Source: Octopus vulgaris (taxonomy: Eukaryota). From it: DNA of 64,000 bases. Position 1 is the stretch's first letter; each line of letters starts with the position of its first letter. Both the position numbers and the translations under genes were made by a program. The DNA is taken from contig OX597832.1 in the NCBI GenBank assembly GCA_951406725.2, forward strand, positions 60,574,001 to 60,638,000, given 5' to 3'. The notes under the pieces are model-generated. The model was not told where the DNA came from, did no database searches, and saw nothing but the letters and a program-made list of their open reading frames with translations. This document shows, piece by piece, positions 4,881 to 63,490 of this stretch.

Positions 4881-5057
4881 GACTGTTGGAATCATTCCAG
4901 GCACCAGTGGTTGTAGCCCAGCTGCAGCAGCCTGTGCAGCCTGCAACTGGAGGTTTTTAATAATTAAGTTGTTTCGACCATTTTGAAGTAACTGTTCCCT
5001 CAGATGTTGAGGTGGATGAAGATACTTGCAAGGAGGATCTTTCCTCTGACATTTGCC
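4881..5057 (-). CDS. mbl: Muscleblind-like protein, second coding exon (59 codons; rest of ZnF2 plus Ala/Gln-rich linker)
   Basis: Pyrimidine tract and CTCCAG|GGC acceptor at 5058, donor GTC|GTAAGT at 4880. Translates to GKCQRKDPPCKYLHPPQHLREQLLQNGRNNLIIKNLQLQAAQAAAAGLQPLVPGMIPTV. It joins in frame to complete CFDSIK|GKC-x6-C-x3-H and carries the Mbl KYLHPP...NGRNNL motif. Confidence 0.95.
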
Positions 5058-36318: not shown

Positions 36319-36704
36319 GGCACAGGTGTGGCTGTGTGGTAAGTAGCTTGCTAACCAACCACATGGTTCCGGGTTCAGTCCCACTGCGTGGCATCTTGGG
36401 CAAGTGTCTTCTGCTATAGCCCCGGGCCGACCAATGCCTTGTGAGTGGATTTGGTAGACGGAAACTGAAAGAAGCCTGTCGTATATATGTGTGTGTGTAT
36501 GTGTTTGCGTGGCTGTGTTTGTCCCCCTTGACAACCGATGCTGGTGTATTTATGTCCCCGTCACTTAGCGGTTCGGCAAAAGAGACCGATAGAATAAGTA
36601 CTGGGTTTACAATGAATAAGTCCCGGGGTCGATTTGCTTGACTAAAGGTGGTGCTCCAGCATGGCTGCAGTCAAAATGACTGAAACAAGTAAAAGAGTAA
36701 AAGA
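36319..36704 (+). mobile_element. Full-length family A CORE-type SINE inserted in a MITE
   Basis: A-box-like TGGCTGTGTGGTAA, B-box-like GGTTCAGTCC, CTTGGGCAAGTGTC core, internal TA/TG tract and AAAAGAGTAAAAGA tail. Many homologous copies occur in the window. Confidence 0.85.
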
Positions 36705-45145: not shown

Positions 45146-46054
45146 TGCCACCTACAATTAAAGATTATGTTATCAAACGGTTATTGTTATCAAAATTTGT
45201 GGGTGCCCAAACATGTTCAATATGTTGCTATTTTGTCTTTTTAATTGCTACAGCTGTTTATTGTTATCTACAAAGCTCTGTTCCAAAATGATTACAGCAA
45301 CCAACTTCCACTGCATGCATGCGTGTGTATAGGCCATCTAACCAGTCCCGGCATGGAAAAGCAGAGGTAAGAATGACAGTAATAATGATGGAGCACTATA
45401 CGACATTATATCATATGATATAATACACTATATATATATAGGGTAAGTCAGTCAGTGAAGGGAATGGAGTAGGTAGTTATGTAATACATATGTTTCAAAG
45501 GATGTACAGAACAAGTATTATGCAACTTTAACGTACTACACAATGTTCCTCTTTTACGACCATGAACAAGTAGGTAAGTACCCAAGAAGAAGGAACACTG
45601 AACATCTATGTAGCATCTTAGAGTTACGTGATAGCTGTCTGGTAAATCCTTTGAAACATAGGTTCTATGAAACTACCTATTCATTTACTGAGCTTGTCTC
45701 TCTGCCGTGTGTGTGTGTGTGTGGTTGTCTAAGTATTTGAGAGGAGTTGTATATGTGTGTGTGTGACTGGCTGTAATTGTTTTTCTTGGTGTGTACATTT
45801 TGTGTTTATGAGAACATGTCTATGTATACTTGTATTCGTATCTCCTCCCTCTCTCATTACTCATCCAACATCTGCCACAAAGTCATCTCCCCTGGGCTCA
45901 AACATACCCAACTGAGTGGAGAGGGTATTTCTTTTTCATGTAAGTTACCTCAAGAGCTTACCAGTACCTGTACCATGAAAATAAGCACCCAGTAATTAGT
46001 GTAAGGCAGTTGGAATTAGAAAGGGCTCCAGCCACCAGAGACACCATACCGAAG

Positions 46055-46197
46055 CTTCCATCTACCAAATCCACTCACAAGGCTTTGGTCAGCCCAAGGC
46101 TACAGTAGAAGACTCTTGTCCAAGATGCCATGCAGTCGGACTGAACCTGGAACCATGTAGTTGGTAAGCAAGCTACTTACGCAGTCACTCCTACGCC
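46055..46197 (-). mobile_element. Family A SINE, 5' half (back-to-back with the family B copy at 46259)
   Basis: Reverse complement of the family A head and core. Confidence 0.7.
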
Positions 46198-47786: not shown

Positions 47787-47864
47787 TTTAAGTAATTTAT
47801 TTTACTCAAAATATGCCCCTTCCAACCTCGTTACACACCAAATTTTCACACATACACATACCTA

Positions 47865-48065
47865 TTTCTTTACTACCCACAAGGGACTAAACACAGAGGA
47901 GACAAACAAGGACAGACAGACGGATTAAGTCGATTTTATCGACCCCAGTGCGTAACTGGTACTAATTTAATCGACCCTGAAAGGATGAAAGGCAAAGTCG
48001 ACCCCGGCGGAATTTGAACTCAGAACGTTAAGACAGACGAAATACAGCTACGCATTTCGCCCGAC
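47865..48065 (-). mobile_element. Family B SINE (young subfamily with a different 3' end)
   Basis: CGACCCTGAAAGGATGAAAGGCAAAGTCGACCCCGGCGGAATTTGAACTCAGAACG with CpGs retained. Confidence 0.8.
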
Positions 48066-49233: not shown

Positions 49234-49569
49234 TTAATACTCCACCTCTCAGTTGAGGGGTTTTTGTCTTGCGGGTTTCTTGATGACTTCATTAGGGCCG
49301 ATGGGACAATAAATGCACCCAGTACAAACTTGAAATCTATTGTTACCAAATTCCTTTTAAAATACACGCTACTGTTATTTAGATACATTTATGAAATTCA
49401 TTAGAAAGGAAAAGAATTTATTAGAGTTATACCAATGCTGGCGTTGGGCAGCAACATAGCAGAATTGTTTGCATGTCAGGCAAAATGCTCAACTGGCATT
49501 TCATCTTGTCTTCATATTCTGAGTTCAAATTCTCCCGAGGTCCACTTTACTTCTTATCATTTCAGGGGT

Positions 49570-49902
49570 CCAGTCCCACTGTGTGGCATCGTGGGCAAGT
49601 GTCTTCTACTATAGTCTCAGGCCGATCAGAGCCTTGTGAATGGATTTGGTAGATGGAAACAAAAAAGCCCGTTGTGTATATCTATCTGTGTGTGTGTGTG
49701 CGTGTGTGTGTGTGTGTGTTCATCCCACAACCATTGCTTGACAATCGATGTTGGTATGTTTACATCTTAATAACTTAGTAGTTTGGTAAAAGACACCAAT
49801 AGAATAAGTACTAGGCTTACAAAGAATAAGTCCTGGGGTCAGTTTGCTTGACTAAAGGTGGTGCTCTGGCATGGCCACAGTCAAAATGACTAAAACAAAT
49901 AA

Positions 49903-49905
<3 letters not shown>
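49570..49905 (+). mobile_element. Family A SINE, 5'-truncated and fused to a family B head
   Basis: CAGTCCCACTGTGTGGCATC...AGAATAAGTACTAGGCTTACAAAGAATAAGTCC. Confidence 0.75.
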
Positions 49906-49960
<55 letters not shown>

Positions 49961-50301
49961 ATATATCTATATATGTATGTATATATATCTTTGGCTTTGT
50001 AAGGTCAACAGATATTAATTGAGCATGAAATCAATAATTACTTAATCAATTTAATTAAACACAAGGTCAGCAGCATTTTCTATGAAGTATCTTAACAACA
50101 TTGAATGTGGTTGCAAAAAAAAAAAGCAAAAAAAAACAACAAACTAAAAACCCATTAGCATTTTATATCCAATATCAAGTGATACAGTAAATAACTTCTT
50201 CGCTAATTTCAGGCCATCCAATCTACCTTTTACTGAATTACAGATTAAGTGGCTGAGTATACATGCACTCAGAATGAGAAAGCTCTAGATGTATATAGAT
50301 A

Positions 50302-50743
50302 TAGGCATGGTTGCTTCCCAACCACATGGTTCCAGGTTCAGTCCTGCTGCATGGCACCTTGGGCAAGTGTCTTCTACAATAACCAAAAGTTGATTAAAGC
50401 CTTGTGAGTGGATTTGGTAGATGGAAACAGAAAGAAGCCCACCATATATGTATGTGTGTGTGTTTTTTGTCTCTGTGTTTGTATCCACCCCACCAACCAC
50501 TGCTTGACAACTGGAGTTGGTTTGTTTACATCCCTGAAACTTAGCCTACTGGTCTCTTTTGCTGAGTCAATTCATTTGACTAACAGATTCTTCAAGTCAG
50601 TGCCCCAGCAAGGCCGCAGTCTAATGACTGAAACCAGTAGAAAATAAATGCTATATACAACTATCTATGTGTGTACATATGTGTTGTCTAGAGCTTAGGG
50701 TGTTTGGTTTACAATCAGAAGGTCTTGAGTTCAATTCCTGGAC

Positions 50744-50795
<52 letters not shown>

Positions 50796-51010
50796 ATATG
50801 TTTGTGTGTCTGTTTTTGTCCCACCAACATTGCTTGACAACCAATGCTGGTGTGTTTACATTCCTGTAACTTAGTGATTCGGCAAAAGAGACCGATAGAA
50901 TAAGTACTAGGCTTACAAAGAATAAGTCCTGAGGTTGCTTTGCTCGACTAAAGGCAGTGCTCCAGCATGGCCGCAGTCAAGTGACTGAAACAAGTAAAAG
51001 AGTAAAGAGT
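50302..51010 (+). mobile_element. Two adjacent family A SINE copies (degenerate 50302-50645; 3' half 50783-51010)
   Basis: Matches the family A core and tail. Confidence 0.7.
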
Positions 51011-54829: not shown

Positions 54830-54976
54830 GGTGCGGGGATGGCTGTGTGGTAAGTACCTTGCTTCCCAACCACATGGTTCAGGGTTCAGTCCCAATGTGT
54901 GGCACCTACTATAGCCTTGAGCTGATCAAAGCCTTGTGAGTGGATTTGGTAGTAGGAAGCTGAAAGAAGCCCATTG

Positions 54977-55037
<61 letters not shown>

Positions 55038-55236
55038 TTGTGTGTCTGTGTCTTTCCCACCACCTTTGCTTGAAAATCTATGTTGGTGTGTATACATCCC
55101 CGCAACTTAGTGGTTCAGTAAACAAGATCAATAGAATAAGTACTAGGCTTACAAAGAATAAGTCCTGGGGCCGATTTATTCGACTCAGGGCAGTGCTCCA
55201 GCATGGCTGCAGTCAAATGATTGAAACAAGTAAAAG
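54830..55236 (+). mobile_element. Near full-length family A SINE
   Basis: Head, internal (TG)n tract and tail match the 36319 copy. Confidence 0.8.
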
Positions 55237-55971
55237 AACAGATACATACACACACACACACACACCTTCATCATCATCATCATCATCATTTGATGTCCTC
55301 CATTTTCCATACAGGCACAAGCTGAATGGTTTGATAGGAGCTGGCAAACCAGGGGTCTAGAAACACACATGTAGATGTGTGTGTATGTACATACTCATAC
55401 ACACAGGGATAGATAGGAATACATACAATGATATGTACACACTAAGTCACGACAGGTTCTATCAACCAAGTGCACTCGCGAGGCTTTCATTGGTCCAGCA
55501 CTATAGCAGAAGCCACCTGCCCAAGGTGCCATGTAGAGGGACTCAACCTAAAAGCGGGGCTGCCTTAGCAGTTTTATGGCCACCACCTCCTCGGAAAAAT
55601 CAATGCATTGAGCCTTATAGTATATTTTATTGACAGCAAGCTATGATATAAGTAGATCAGAAGTGTGGCCCTAGCCCCGTGAGGCTCCTGAAGCAACTGA
55701 CCAGTGTATTCATGCCTTAAGATGGCCCTGCATGAAACCAATTGGCTGAAAAACAGGCCAATGAACTCTCTGATCCTTACAGACTCTGCTTTTTTAACAA
55801 ACAAGAAGAAATCAGTTCCCATCACAACAAAGTCAACATGTGCTCAGTAAAATTTATTCCAGAATATTCTCAAGAGACTCAGCTTCCATATACCTCCTAG
55901 TCATTCTTCAACAAACCAACAACACAACCTCATTACTATCACTGCCAAAATAAAACAAACAAAAAATATAT

Positions 55972-56553
55972 TTAACTTGTTTACATTTAAACCAATCATA
56001 TTTCGCCCCAAAATTCAACCAGCTTTATGTTAAAACCTGCCAGATCCAGCCTGTCGCACCTACTCTACAATGTCATTCTAAAAATAGACTAACACACCAT
56101 TGAAATCCTGAAGCTTTGAGATGAAGCAGGATTAATTCAAAACAATGTGAAGAGATACAGCCCAATGGTTATGTGTTGCACTCTTGAGCACCAGATCATG
56201 GGTTTTCATATTGTTTTGCTCTGGCATTGTGTGGAGACTGGCATTTCAATGAACACACCTAATATTTCTTGTGTATCGGAAAAGGTGACTGAATGAGATT
56301 GAGCTAGGATTTGCACTCCGACCTCGTAAAACCTTAACCAGCATTGACTACCCAAAACAACCCATGAGTTGGAGGGCTGTCGCCTGATTGGTGCAAGGGC
56401 ATCATGCACCAGGAGTGGGAGGGAAACACCAACAAATGGTGGGTGCAGTGACATGCTGTTACAGCACGTTCCCCTCATGCAGCAATTTTTATTACTAACG
56501 TGAAGAAATAAAGCATTATAATTGACAGAGCAATCTGAATGCTGTAGGGTTAA
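55972..56553. mobile_element. Second-family MITE copy interrupted by a ~346-bp insert
   Basis: Ends ...AATCTGAATGCTGTAGGG|TTAA. The insert is flanked by a GTGAAGA duplication. Confidence 0.55.
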
Positions 56554-57611
56554 ACAAAGTAGCCAACCAGAAAATGTGGGGGTGATAGGAAGAGGAGCAA
56601 TGGTACCACAGGGAAATAAATGGTGGTGGTGGTGGTGATAGTGAGATAGTGATGCTGATGGTGGGGGGTAAAGAAAATATTTACAAATATGATATCAAGT
56701 ACAAGGAGAAAAAAAAAAATAATTACAGACATGATGAAGAAATTAATGCTACAAATAGCAGAGACCAGACAGTAAAAACATTCCAGAATCTCAAAAATTA
56801 ATGAAAAAAAAAAAAAATGATTGAGCTTGAGAGATGAAGAAAACAGAGAGTGAGAAGAGAGGTGAAACAATCTGAGAGAGAGGTTACCAGAGAGGGAGAA
56901 TGAGAAGATAAGAGTAATAGAATTGGAATGGGAATAATAGAATAGGACTACAATATAGTATAAGAATACTGAACAAGAATACAATATGTACATAGAATAT
57001 TAGAATACGATTGTAAACAAAGAATAAGAACATGGATAATAGAAGATCAGAATAATAGAATACAGAATATAATACAGAATCAGAATAGAATGCAGAATTA
57101 GAATAAAAGAATAAGAATATCCTGAACATCAACCAAATCTAACATGGAAGTAAAAACCTTGAATAAACATCTCTCGCTCTATGTAATTTGGAACCCAGAC
57201 AGTCCTGAATTATTAATTTATTTAAAGGATTTACAGTGAGTCTTGTGTTCTTATTTAACATTTGAATGGCGGGGTAGGTTTGAAATGTTAAGCACAGCTT
57301 TCTATAACTACACACATTGAAACTGAGTGGAGTATATAAGATATCATTCGAGCTGTAAAAATAGCAGCTAAATACCCACTCAAGTTACACTACCATTAAA
57401 CTCTATCATCCAACCTGGAAGACAGAGTTTGGTCCCATAAATGTATACAAAATGGGCTGTTAGACATTTCATAAAGGTAAGTAAAAAAGGATGAATGTCT
57501 AAGTGAACCTTGGTTACATAACAATTCTGTGATCCACTGCTCTCCAAGAAATAATGATTCCAAACTAAGCCACAAGGCCCATGCATTTTGTGAGAATTAA
57601 ACAAAGGGTAA

Positions 57612-57941
57612 AGAGCCCCTTCGGTCATGAAGGGCCATCGGATTCCACTTAGAAAGTTCCTCTCCAAGGAACAAGTCCAGGCAAGGTTGTTTATGGAAGG
57701 CCAGTAGTCACCCATACATACCAGCCTCCTCTCTCCATGCCACCGATGTTGTCCAAGGGAAAGGCAGAGGGGATGATATGGTTTGACACCAGTGATGTCG
57801 CAACTCATTTCTACAGTTGAATGAACTCGAACAACATGAAATAAAGTGTCTAAGAAACACAACACACAGCCTGGGCTGGGAATCAAACTCACTACATCAT
57901 GATTGTGAGCCTGTTGCTCTAACTACTGAGCCATGTGCCTT
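57612..57941 (-). mobile_element. SINE family D, full copy
   Basis: Colinear with 33376-33707. Confidence 0.75.
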
Positions 57942-58605
57942 CACTGAGAATAAAGTACAGCTGATGTAATCAACCCCAATATGTGACTGGTACTTGTTTA
58001 GCCCTTTCATTACTGTGTTTCCATAGAAACACAACACAAGTGTTTTAATTAAATTTGGATTTTGTAAAACAAATTGGATATTATTAAGATGATGTTTGAA
58101 ACACAAAATTTTCATAAAAGGTTTTAATTTAGCTCATATCTGTCCCAAATATTCTACCTGTTTTATGTTTAAACTGACCAGATTTGGCCTCTCACACTTA
58201 CCCTACAATGTCATTTCAAAATCAATAATCACATCAATGAAGTATCAAAGCTGCAAGCCAATGCAGGATTAATTTAAAACAAGCATTATGTCTGACAAGG
58301 GTCTCTGAATGCTAGAATTACAGCAGCAAGTTTGTCTTATAGAAACAGGGGTTGGTGTTAGTCAGGTTGATATCATATGGGTTAAATATACCATAATCTC
58401 TGCAGTTTCTGGGTGTTTTCTTTTGTTTTTTTTCGAAGGGTTTTGTGTGTGTGTGTGTATGTGAATTTGAATGTATATACCTTTTTCAGGAGGTGCATTT
58501 TTTTAAACCAACATTTCATTTAACATGTAAAAATGGTACACAAGAAAAACATAATCAAAGAAAAGGAAGGTTACAGAAATGAAATAATGAAATAGCAGGA
58601 CTTAC

Positions 58606-58794
58606 TTTTATCGAATCAAAGCAAGCTGTCACGCGTCCATTTTGTACTTCTACGTGAGAGGGCGGATGAGCAAATTTGCATTCTGTTTCGGAGCGTGTAC
58701 ATTTGTTTCTTTGGAACTCGCGGCAAACTTCCAGTGTCAGCCATCGCGAGTCTTTGACGTTAGCAAGATTAAGCATAGGGTTAACCATGGCCAT
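58606..58794 (-). CDS. mbl: Muscleblind-like protein, first coding exon (63 codons; CCCH ZnF1 and first residues of ZnF2)
   Basis: Translates to [63 protein letters not shown]. This contains the [10 protein letters not shown] signature and the C-x7-C-x6-C-x3-H finger of the Muscleblind family. It ends at a phase-0 donor AAA|GTAAGT (intron starts at 58605). The start ATG at 58794 is inferred; in-frame ATGs also occur at 58788 and 58776. Confidence 0.95.
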
Positions 58795-59815
58795 AACAAA
58801 TGGGTAATCTTCTTCACAGAAAGAAGTTTTGAAAGACTTCAGGGTGTGCGCGCAAGGGGAAAAAGGGGGTTTGTCGTATATTCGGATGAAAGAACGGTAA
58901 ACGGACAAAAAAGAGATAGAAAGAGACAGACAGGAAGAATGTGGTAGGTTTTAAAAAAAAATATTTGGACTGTCGGTTTAAAAATTTTTCAAATAAAAAT
59001 ATAATACAAAGAATAAAACGATGGACACACAGACACAAAGAAAATATGTTAAAGTCGACTGTAAATGGAATTACGATCCGAGATTTCCAGCAAATGGAAT
59101 ATTCTTTGAATTTTTCCTTTCTTTTTTTTTTTGATTGTGCTTTCAGAGAAGTATAAGATCAGCAGAGAAATAGGGGGTGTGTTGTTGACACGGAGGAGGA
59201 TGTGTGCATGTGTATGCTTGGGTGTATGTGTTTATGTATATGCATGTATGGGCTGTGATAATAAAACGGCTGCCAACAATGGATTAAAGAGTCTGTTTGG
59301 GGGAGGGGAGATATTTTTCTTCATATATATATATATATAAAAATCTCACAGCAACTGCACATTGGGGGTGAGGGGTGACGTTTTGGTAGAGGGGAGGGCA
59401 GGTATATTATATAATATATTTTCTAAAATATATATATATACATATATATATATGTATATATATATATACATATGTATATATATATATAAATATATATATG
59501 TATATATATATATATATTAATTTCGTTTCGTGTTGTTTTTTTTTTTCTTTTTTAATATTTACTTTTAAATATTTAATTAAAAATTATTTTCGTTTAGTAA
59601 AAAAAAAAAAAATAACACTGTTTCTTTTTCTTATTCACTTTGAATGATGTTTGGCATTGGCTTTTGTTTTTGTTGCTTTTTGTGGAAAGGAGAAATTTGT
59701 GGGGTTTTTGGGTTTTTTTTTTTACAAAAAATGGTAAAAATATTTGAAAATATCCAATTTCACACCAATTTATGGCATCCAGCAGTGTTTTTTCCTGAAC
59801 AAATTATGGTTGAAC
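58795..59815 (-). other. mbl: Putative 5'UTR part of the ATG-containing mbl exon
   Basis: Strong acceptor TATTTTATTTTATTTTCCAG|GTT at 59816/59815. A weaker alternative is TTCCATTTACAG|TC, which would start the exon at 59058. The region 58795-59200 has no ATG on the minus strand and retains CpGs. Confidence 0.5.
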
Positions 59816-59968
59816 CTGGAAAATAAAATAAAATAGAATATTTTGAGTAAATCTATTTATTATTAGCATCGATTAAGAAAAAATTAACAAAGATTCATAA
59901 TTTTACAAATGTCAAAGATGAAAATACCAAACGGTTACAGCTTAAAAACGAAGGAAAATGGAGTTAGT

Positions 59969-60358
59969 TTTACTCTTTTACTTGTTTCAGTCATTTGACT
60001 GCGGCCATGCTGGAGCACCGCCTTTAGTCGAGCAAATCGACCCCAGGACTTATTCTTTGTAAGCCTAGTACTTATTCTATCGGTCTTTTTTGCCGAACCG
60101 CTAAGTTATGGGGATGTAAACACACCAGCATCGGTTGTCAAGTGATGTTGGGGGTACAAACACAGACACACACACATATATATATATATATACATATATA
60201 CAAAGGGCTTCTTTCAGTTTCCGTCTACCAAATCCACTCACAAGGCTTTCGTCCACCCGAAGCTATAGTAGAAGACACTTGCCCAAGGTGCCACGCAGTG
60301 GGACTGAACCCAAAACCATGTAGTTGGTAAGCAAGCTACTTACCACACAGCTACTCCT
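59969..60358 (-). mobile_element. Full-length, well-preserved family A SINE just upstream of the mbl ATG exon
   Basis: Reverse complement of the 36319 copy with CpGs retained. Confidence 0.85.
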
Positions 60359-62013
60359 GGTTCTTGGAATATAAATTAATCTGAATTAATGTGGAAGGTT
60401 TTAATTTATATCAGTTTAAAACAAGAAGCTTGTATCAGAGAATCACCGTCTGTTTCAAGGATAGCTTTGGTATGAAAAGGGCTCAATTTTTGCTCCTGTC
60501 TCACTGCCTTGTATATAATCTTTGAGACAGACAAGAGCAGATTATATTAATTACAAAGACTGAGGCATTTAAAGGGGAATTTTATTTCATTGTATTTGAT
60601 TTATCCTGATACCAATACCGGGACGACGAAAGGGTAAGCTGACCTCGGAATTATTACTAATAATATTAAGAAAACCACTACTACTACTAATAATAATAAT
60701 CCATATGAAACAGACACAAAATATATATTTAAAAAAAACAAGCAGATACAAACTAATCACAACTTAAAACTTAATTAGTCAGTCATAAGTAATGTCAAAC
60801 GAGATCTGAGCTCATTGAGAGAGAGAGAGAGAGAGAGGGGGGGAGAGAGAATAGAGAGACTGAATGGAACAACAAAATAGATTATAATCATGTAAGCTAT
60901 CTGTTAAATGTGCTGAAATAGGTGTGGCCTGCAGTTTTATAGTTTGTCTCTTTTTTTTTCCTTTTAAATTTTTTTTTTGGGGGGGGGGGGTTATTGGTGT
61001 TTTGTTTTGGGTTATTTATATGTGGGTGGTGGAGGGAGTGCAGAGGGGGGGGAAATAAACAAAAATAGAGAGAAAGAGTGTGTGAAGGAAAATTAATTAA
61101 CTAGGACTGCCATTCTCAGCTGTATTTTTAACTGAATGTCATCAAGGAAAAAAAAGGAAAGAAAAATGTCAATATGTGTGTGTGTATGCATATATATATT
61201 TATAAACACATGCACACATGCATATACACACACACACACAAACATATACACACATGCACAAATATACATATATACACACACATGCACACATACTTATATA
61301 CATACATATACATACATACACACATACATGTATATGCACACATATGTATACGCGCACACACACCATCAGAAACATCTGTATATCCATTTGTATACACACA
61401 TGTACACATACATCTAAATATCTGTATACACACACACACTGTTGTATATTCATCCATCTTGAAACAAGACATACATCTCTCTACCTATCAATACATATAG
61501 ATCTGTATACATGCTTTGTGTGTGTGAGTGGAACAAAAACAATAGCCCAGCCAATAATTTCAGAAACCTCTCTGCCACCAAGCCCTCACCACCGCCATCC
61601 TTGCCCATCCCTCACAAAACAGCTCCTGTTTCATTTCCTTTCAATGTTGATGACACCAAATTCCTCATAACACCCAGCCATTCACTCATCTACCCACCAC
61701 CACCTACATTTACATTAGACACCACATCCACCACCACCACCACCAACAATAACAATTGTTACTACTCCAGCAACATTACTAAGCACCACCACTGCCACCA
61801 TCCAGCACATGCTAAATTAACCACTTTTTGTTAGTAGTGGTGGCGTTGATGGTGGTGTCAGACAAAGGCAGTGAGAGAAGGAATTCTCAAATGACAGTAG
61901 ATTTATTGACAACCAAATGGCCACTGTCCTACCCATGCCAGCATGGGACATGGACATTAAAGAAGAGACAGCAGCCTTCAACTCACTAAATATTTTTATA
62001 ACTTCTTGGAGTC

Positions 62014-62212
62014 TTTTACTCTTCTATTTGTTTCAGTCATTTGACTGCAGCCATGCTGGAGCACCGCCTTTAGTCGAGGACTTATTCTTTGTAAACATAG
62101 TACTTATTTTACCGGTCTCTTTTGCCGAACCGCTAGGTGACAGGGATGTAAACACACCAGCATCAGCTGCAAGCGATGTTGGGGGGACAAACACAGACAT
62201 ACAAACATATAT

Positions 62213-62262
<50 letters not shown>

Positions 62263-62403
62263 GACAGGCTTCTTTCAGTTTCCGTCTACCAAATCCACTC
62301 ACAAGGCTTTGGTCAGTCCGAGGCTATAGTAGAAGACACTTGCTGAAGGTGCCACACAGTGGGACTGAACCCCGTTACCATGTGGTTGGTAAGCAAGCTA
62401 CTT
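62014..62403 (-). mobile_element. Family A SINE
   Basis: Highly similar to 59969-60358. Confidence 0.8.
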
Positions 62404-63136: not shown

Positions 63137-63490
63137 GGCGAGGCTGTGTGATAAGAGGTTTGCATTGCAGCCACATGGTTGTGGGTTCAGTACCACACGG
63201 TGGTACCTTGGGTGTCTTCTACTCTAGCCTGGGGAATGGTGGGGTGGATTTGGTACATGGAAACTGAAAGAAGCCTCTTGTATATAAATATGTATATATG
63301 TTTGTGTGTTTTGTGTTTGTCTCCCACCACCACCACTATGACATGACAACCACTGTTGGCTTGTTTATGTCCCTATAACTTAGCGGTTGGGCAAGTGACC
63401 AAAAAAAAAAGGAAATACTGGGGTCAAATTGATTGACTAAACCCTTCAAGACAATGCGCCAGCATGGTCACAGTGCAAAGAGCGAAACAA
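63137..63490 (+). mobile_element. Degenerate family A-related SINE
   Basis: GGCTGTGTG...GGATTTGGTACATGGAAACTGAAAGAAGCC...TAACTTAGCGGTT. Confidence 0.65.

Follow-up and report, generated by a model that had tools for sequence, protein, structure and literature searches.

Among the few circular RNAs (circRNAs) with shown functions, circMbl is known from flies and mammals: it derives from exon 2 in the fly gene muscleblind (mbl), where it makes up more than 70% of the signal of this exon, and from the mouse and human genes MBNL1/2 (PMC9352392). In flies, Mbl motifs of the adjoining introns, and not repeats, have been credited with its formation (PMC6769675). Here, we analyze the counterpart of this exon in Octopus vulgaris, located at 58606..59815 on the minus strand of a 64,000-nt window, by which we mean the whole stretch of DNA under study (assembly GCA_951406725.2, contig OX597832.1, positions 60,574,001 to 60,638,000; positions below are those of the window). 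An initial annotation of this window had proposed that the animal may make a circMbl by means of inverted copies of its own short interspersed elements (SINEs). Both ingredients, circMbl and inverted SINEs, are well-known biology, and an octopus circle is a prediction from homology. On balance, we lean slightly toward the view that some circle may be made here owing to an inherited exon layout, the inverted SINEs probably being chance insertions that would add at most to the circle.

When compared with the described systems, the octopus exon resembles that of Drosophila circMbl (circMbl1, mbl exon 2; PMC9352392, PMC5387669) in being an orthologous, internal start-codon exon with a long part of 5′ untranslated region (UTR), in its 3′ boundary and its A-rich tracts, and in the short frame that would stop soon past the back-splice junction. 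It differs in that the fly circle is demonstrated and requires Mbl motifs located in the introns on either side, whereas the octopus circle is only predicted, the YGCY motif stands at background, and SINE pairs lie on both sides. With the circle of human and mouse MBNL1 exon 1 (PMC5389549), it shares the same exon, composed of UTR and of a coding part for the N-terminal zinc finger, as well as non-coding exons upstream; however, the mammalian exon is described as holding nine conserved YGCY at its 5′ end, and the octopus exon has two over its initial 150 nt.

The start-codon exon and its counterparts

A search of the 2.8-Gb genome returned two matches, the start-codon exon and the exon encoding the third zinc finger (ZnF3), both of them muscleblind. 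The start-codon exon is 1,210 nt long, with an AG acceptor at 59815 following a pyrimidine tract, an ATG at 58794 and a GT donor after 58606. Its 5′ UTR part (58795..59815, minus strand; 1,021 nt) contains eight upstream ATGs, a (TA)n repeat and four A-rich tracts (at 59723, 59671, 59553, and 59132), at which oligo-dT priming on a circle is conceivable, while its coding part (58606..58794, minus strand) amounts to 189 nt, that is, 63 codons ending in phase 0, and encodes ZnF1 together with the initial Cys of ZnF2. The intron end that separates the acceptor from the nearest SINE (59816..59968, minus strand; 153 nt) holds the pyrimidine tract and a likely branch point, near 59865. Long flanking introns are a feature of circMbl, and here the upstream intron measures 50,527 nt and the downstream one 53,548 nt, from the donor at 58606 to the start of the next exon at 5057; this next exon (4881..5057, minus strand) carries the rest of ZnF2. 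The acceptor, the donor, the length of about 1210 nt, and the 53.5-kb intron given in the initial annotation are thus all confirmed.

The 63 codons (58794-58606) are 100% identical to the start of an Octopus sinensis MBNL protein (P0007). Among the 120 long homologues listed, 104 continue with ZnF2 after the exon's last codon, and among the short homologues, of which 120 out of 370 were listed, the last codons of the exon read into Val in 104, as is given by a GT donor placed directly after the exon. Likewise, in the 80 related loci that were compared, out of 229 found, a GT stands exactly after the boundary codon in 41, 33 are spliced forms, 5 lack the motif, and 1 falls outside these classes. 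To judge from these sequences, the 3′ boundary of the mbl start-codon exon is conserved across animals, which makes the octopus exon the counterpart, by position, of the circMbl exon of flies and humans; the equivalence that had been asserted with the circularizing exon of Drosophila mbl and human MBNL1 is therefore well founded. As a separate observation on P0007, two adjacent 13-residue stretches of this isoform both map to one place near position 60495870 of the same contig (G000:C19), 78 kb below the start of the window, which reflects either a mini-exon duplicated in O. sinensis or an annotation artefact.

The place of the exon in the transcript could be examined in contigs of four runs, presumed to be RNA, from four studies (4 of the 24 runs listed). 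Such assembled contigs drop rare forms, and the listing, crowded by SINE matches, gives 15 out of 77 joints and 24 out of 850 loose ends. Contigs of all four runs cover the exon at 58605-59310 and at 59562-59817/8; its repeat-rich middle was skipped in contig placement, so that the link between the two covered halves is not directly seen. A contig from run X2 carries 80 extra letters past 59818, the first 30 of which match a single one of 42 loci (L007:6346-6375), next to a GT donor. This match belongs to a non-coding upstream exon of about 81 nt (L007:6423-6343, minus strand), about 50.5 kb upstream of the acceptor. As this upstream exon is itself equipped with a pyrimidine tract and an AG, two or more exons probably precede the start-codon exon in the transcript. 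A contig from run X9 has 256 further letters at the same upstream end. The mbl start-codon exon is hence internal and its acceptor is used, as had been claimed, and the case that the initial annotation named as fatal, namely an ATG exon that comes first and has no acceptor, is excluded by the X2 contig. The alternative acceptor that it had suggested at 59058 finds no support and was discarded, as contigs of all four runs cross this position unbroken. At the other end, the main contigs of the four runs cease to match at 58605, which corresponds to one G common to the intron and the next exon and is the pattern given by linear splicing. Two weak hints concern the upstream side: contigs of two of the four runs start at 59817, which might reflect more than one upstream partner exon, and isoform X1 of O. 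sinensis has four accessions for one protein, which might reflect alternative 5′ exons.

Joining the donor to the acceptor in silico adds three residues before a stop (59806-59804), for a total of 66 amino acids. The frame predicted in the initial annotation, a 66-residue peptide with ZnF1, is thereby reproduced, albeit with the first Cys of ZnF2 in addition; the early stop, by contrast, is unremarkable, given that 11% of positions in this UTR yield a stop within three codons by chance, and we rejected it as a sign of selection. Indeed, stops have been described as falling near circle junctions by chance, for geometrical reasons, and a band just under 10 kDa has been reported for the fly circMbl product (PMC5387669). 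No back-splice was found among the 15 of 77 joints listed, in contigs from which rare forms drop out. In runs X1 and X2, a low-depth contig extends without a break past the end of the exon into intronic sequence, at the point at which a back-splice would diverge, which is only a weak hint. Tails of the circle-peptide type were absent from the 120 short homologues listed (of 370), the best match (P0121) being an intron read-through and discarded as a circle peptide; similarly, none of the 75 compared loci having the motif offered a back-splice-like contig in other animals.

Inverted SINEs across the exon

The SINE family present at this locus is short, high-copy, and dispersed, with 239 copies of at least 80 nt in 1.064 Mb (about 2.2 per 10 kb, and 1.4-3.4 per 10 kb in seven regions), from which one may extrapolate roughly 600,000 copies genome-wide. 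Copies resemble tRNA-derived octopus SINEs by their length of about 390 nt, a putative head with A- and B-box-like words (by eye, against the consensus), an internal microsatellite, what may be a tail of short repeats, and a very high copy number; the octopus families OK and OR are possible candidates. ARAGORN found no tRNA in the SINEs, the SINE heads had no Rfam tRNA match, and the 60 matches of the Rfam scan were all below gathering scores and mostly microsatellite look-alikes. A tRNA-like stretch lying between two SINE copies (50678-50749, plus strand; RF00005, 25.3 bits for a cut-off of 29) is likely the head of another SINE family. In octopus brain transcripts, SINE fragments are reported to be common (PMC9115989).

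All SINE copies named in the initial annotation are present, on the strands that it gave. Upstream of the exon, a full-length, young copy in the sense of the gene (59969..60358, minus strand; 93-95% identity to its ten best distant copies) stops 153 nt short of the acceptor, and a second one on the minus strand (62015..62403) lacks its first bases. Further upstream lies an old copy in the opposite orientation (63143..63394, more weakly to about 63548, plus strand; 76-79% identity to distant copies), a competitor for pairing. Downstream, the nearest full inverted partner across the exon (54842..55237, plus strand), 3.37 kb from the donor, is 74.5% identical over 412 nt to the copy at 59969 and 80-84% identical to distant copies. 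It is followed by a three-copy cluster (49566..51006, plus strand; 49566-49904, 50311-50645, and about 50743-51006) and by a very young copy (36324..36701, plus strand; 94-99% identity to distant copies), which is the best-matching inverted partner, 23 kb away. Matches to gene-sense fragments also occur in the downstream intron (55453..55553 and 46053..46180, minus strand), along with further minus-strand fragments. A target-site duplication of 9 bp is present at 62015, and none was found at 59969 or 36324; at 54842, only a microsatellite word was seen. Since identities to distant genomic copies range from 76% to 99% among the flanking SINEs, these were inserted at different times. The initial annotation was right about the strand and place of the element at 50302-51010, which in fact consists of two copies with the tRNA-like piece between them, and about the existence of reverse-complementary pairs across the exon, but its list was selective: it omitted the plus-strand copy at 63143-63394 and the downstream minus-strand fragments, with which pairing within one intron becomes possible. 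Other repeat families are also inverted across the exon, as in 47863-48062 versus 69460-69659 of L003 (86% identity over 200 nt) and 56024-56157 versus 67648-67781 of L003 (78% over 134 nt; L003 positions relative to the window).

Duplex energies, predicted for isolated pairs with their internal microsatellites included, range from -454 to -618 kcal/mol between the copy at 59969 and four downstream copies, versus -104 for a same-orientation control. The pair formed by 59969 and 54842 reaches -508 kcal/mol across a gap of 4.7 kb, when, within the upstream intron, 59969 and 63143 reach -381 kcal/mol across 2.8 kb, and 62015 and 63143 reach -319 kcal/mol across 736 nt. A SINE duplex across the exon is physically plausible in this model. 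In the four runs, contigs derived from every copy of the family stack up on the SINEs and mask any A-to-I editing of the paired repeats. As in inverted-repeat circRNAs (Alu-type, with reverse-complementary matches; PMC6769675, PMC8516420), reverse-complementary SINEs occur in both introns and are young and lineage-specific; unlike in these, the octopus pair is asymmetric, its copies lying 153 nt from the acceptor and 3.4 kb from the donor, and of modest identity.

Reverse-complementary repeats are found in both introns flanking the start-codon exon, and we compared this arrangement with that of 40 real exons, selected among 49 PDZ and 115 RRM matches as having short open frames and lying at separate loci, keeping in mind that control flanks may include other exons, that control introns were not length-matched to mbl, and that the mbl exon was chosen after the fact. 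Of these 40 controls, 12 lie between inverted members of the family at distances of up to 5 kb and 22 at distances of up to 10 kb, and 5 have a SINE copy at 300 nt or less from the edge of the match. The best single inverted match at mbl is equalled by 5 controls at 5 kb and by 10 at 10 kb. The excess of inverted over direct matches is reached by 1 and 2 controls, respectively, and the opposite excess, of direct over inverted matches, is found in 5 and 2. An inverted match closer than 1.5 kb to both splice sites is absent at mbl and rare among controls too (1/40), and local repeat density is high, with 14 half-hits for a control mean of 5.7. When a pseudo-exon was slid along the sequence (all repeats being counted, at overlapping and thus not independent positions), an inverted match of at least 100 bits bracketed 23% of positions at 5 kb, 51% at 10 kb, and 88% at 25 kb; the best match at mbl was equalled at 5.8% of 513 positions (5 kb) and 9.7% of 423 (10 kb), and its inverted-minus-direct score at 50 kb was equalled at 9.3%. 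Permuting strands among the observed copies gave p = 0.16, 0.067, 0.014, and 0.11 at 5, 10, 25, and 50 kb. Inverted SINEs thus enclose this exon to a somewhat greater degree than they do most others; depending on the measure, the exon stands in the top 3-25% of real exons, within a repeat-dense patch, which is suggestive, not strong. As for the proposal of a SINE-based circMbl, the internal exon holds and the duplex is plausible, but inverted pairs are common among control exons and none is close to both splice sites.

SINEs, muscleblind motifs, and linear splicing as candidate explanations

According to the reading that we slightly favor, the two very long introns would delay linear splicing and the donor at 58606 would sometimes attack the acceptor at 59815. 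The copies at 63143 and 62015, transcribed first and closest to each other, would pair mutually, presumably leaving 59969 free for a partner across the exon. Its pairing with 54842 would form a 4.7-kb loop that lies close to the acceptor, the donor being 3.4 kb away, and this duplex would be weakened by ADAR. Circle levels would be low, and a 66-residue peptide, if produced, would be a side product. With regard to the secondary role given here to the SINEs, matches across the exon were absent from eight of nine related genomic loci with long flanks (some of them near-duplicates), the remaining locus having one of only 45 nt; a young insertion cannot explain a layout that is shared with flies and mammals. 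A study of mammals associates orthologous circRNAs, seen as a by-product, with young, species-specific repeats (PMC8516420).

A number of results weigh against this reading. The predicted circle itself rests on homology. The summed inverted score is reached by only 2 of 40 controls at 5 kb and 3 at 10 kb, the across-minus-within score by 1 at either distance, and the inverted-minus-direct score is equalled at only 1.2%, 0.5%, and 0.4% of pseudo-exon positions at 5, 10, and 25 kb; moreover, the inverted signal is the highest of eight mbl exons at 5, 10, and 25 kb. This upper-tail signal would favor a real role of the SINEs more than an inherited layout with chance insertions allows. The motifs on which the fly circle depends are not enriched either: the exon shows no excess of YGCY (14 vs. 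12.2 in shuffled sequences, p = 0.285, in a motif count that is not a binding test), and the 500-nt flanks stand at background (4 vs. 5.7 and 4 vs. 3.7 in shuffled sequences). Furthermore, the 296 circRNAs reported in O. vulgaris were at low levels, which was linked to ADAR (PMC9699675), and the human MBNL1 circle is described as relatively small in amount in muscle (PMC5389549).

By part of the exon, YGCY amounts to 7 versus 7.2 in the UTR and 7 versus 4.3 in the coding portion (p = 0.065). In the 500 nt past the donor of 32 related loci, 125 sense YGCY stand against 121 antisense, and the near-equality of these numbers implies that a plain count finds no signal elsewhere either. Four loci (L216, L221, L260, and L185) have 11-14 YGCY in these 500 nt (3-6 antisense) versus 4 in the octopus. 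Single YGCY occur at 59868, at the likely branch point, and at 58597, 9 nt past the donor, as expected by chance at background density.

Another explanation is that pairing of the copies at 59969 and 62015 with the downstream plus-strand copies is the main cause of back-splicing, in the manner of human inverted Alus. The predicted duplexes, far more stable than the same-orientation control, speak for it, as does the presence of two gene-sense upstream copies for one competitor within 5 kb, which leaves one copy free. The same holds for the rank of the exon, first among the mbl exons and in the top 1-3 of the controls by summed scores, and for the want of a YGCY excess as an alternative driver. 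Nevertheless, the inverted matches stay away from one or the other splice site, the nearest partner is diverged and distant from the donor, the best match is equalled by some controls, among which the mirror arrangement is as frequent, the patch is repeat-dense, the key copy at 59969 is young, and, in octopus, back-splicing is reportedly counteracted by ADAR (PMC9699675). All things considered, we regard a SINE-driven origin as unlikely. Rather doubtful, in our estimation, is the explanation in which no meaningful circle is made, the exon being spliced linearly while the SINE duplex is edited and melted, and any feedback passing through exon skipping or the choice of a 5′ exon, in the way of exon 1 of human MBNL1. 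It would agree with the linear joins present in the contigs, with the overall low circRNA levels of octopus (PMC9699675), with the skipping of this exon that MBNL proteins promote in human cells (PMC5389549), and with the weak hints of alternative 5′ exons given by contig starts and O. sinensis accessions. However, the exon circularizes in fly, mouse, and human (PMC9352392), skipping and back-splicing can co-occur (PMC6769675), and the octopus exon shows no YGCY cluster such as the one responsible for skipping in human cells.

A possible circMbl in an ADAR-rich lineage

In our literature search, which subscription papers lay outside of, no paper brought together circular RNA, octopus, and muscleblind, and none of those listed described a cephalopod circMbl; muscleblind goes unmentioned in the searched text of the octopus circRNA study (PMC9699675). 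Across animals, editing is reported to favor young repeats (PMC9989829), and the locus bears on whether ADAR-rich cephalopods suppress repeat-driven back-splicing.

If genuine, a mollusc circMbl would add a third bilaterian branch to those of flies and mammals, and would bear on whether the circle is ancestral or of convergent origin. A further scenario, which we deem quite improbable, is that an ancient circMbl was kept while its driver was swapped, the circle depending, without a cluster of MBL motifs, on recent SINE duplexes. Were this the case, ADAR would control muscleblind dosage in a lineage whose A-to-I editing is extreme, and the octopus exon would represent, in the literature searched, the first lophotrochozoan circMbl and a clear-cut example of transposons rewiring a conserved circle.

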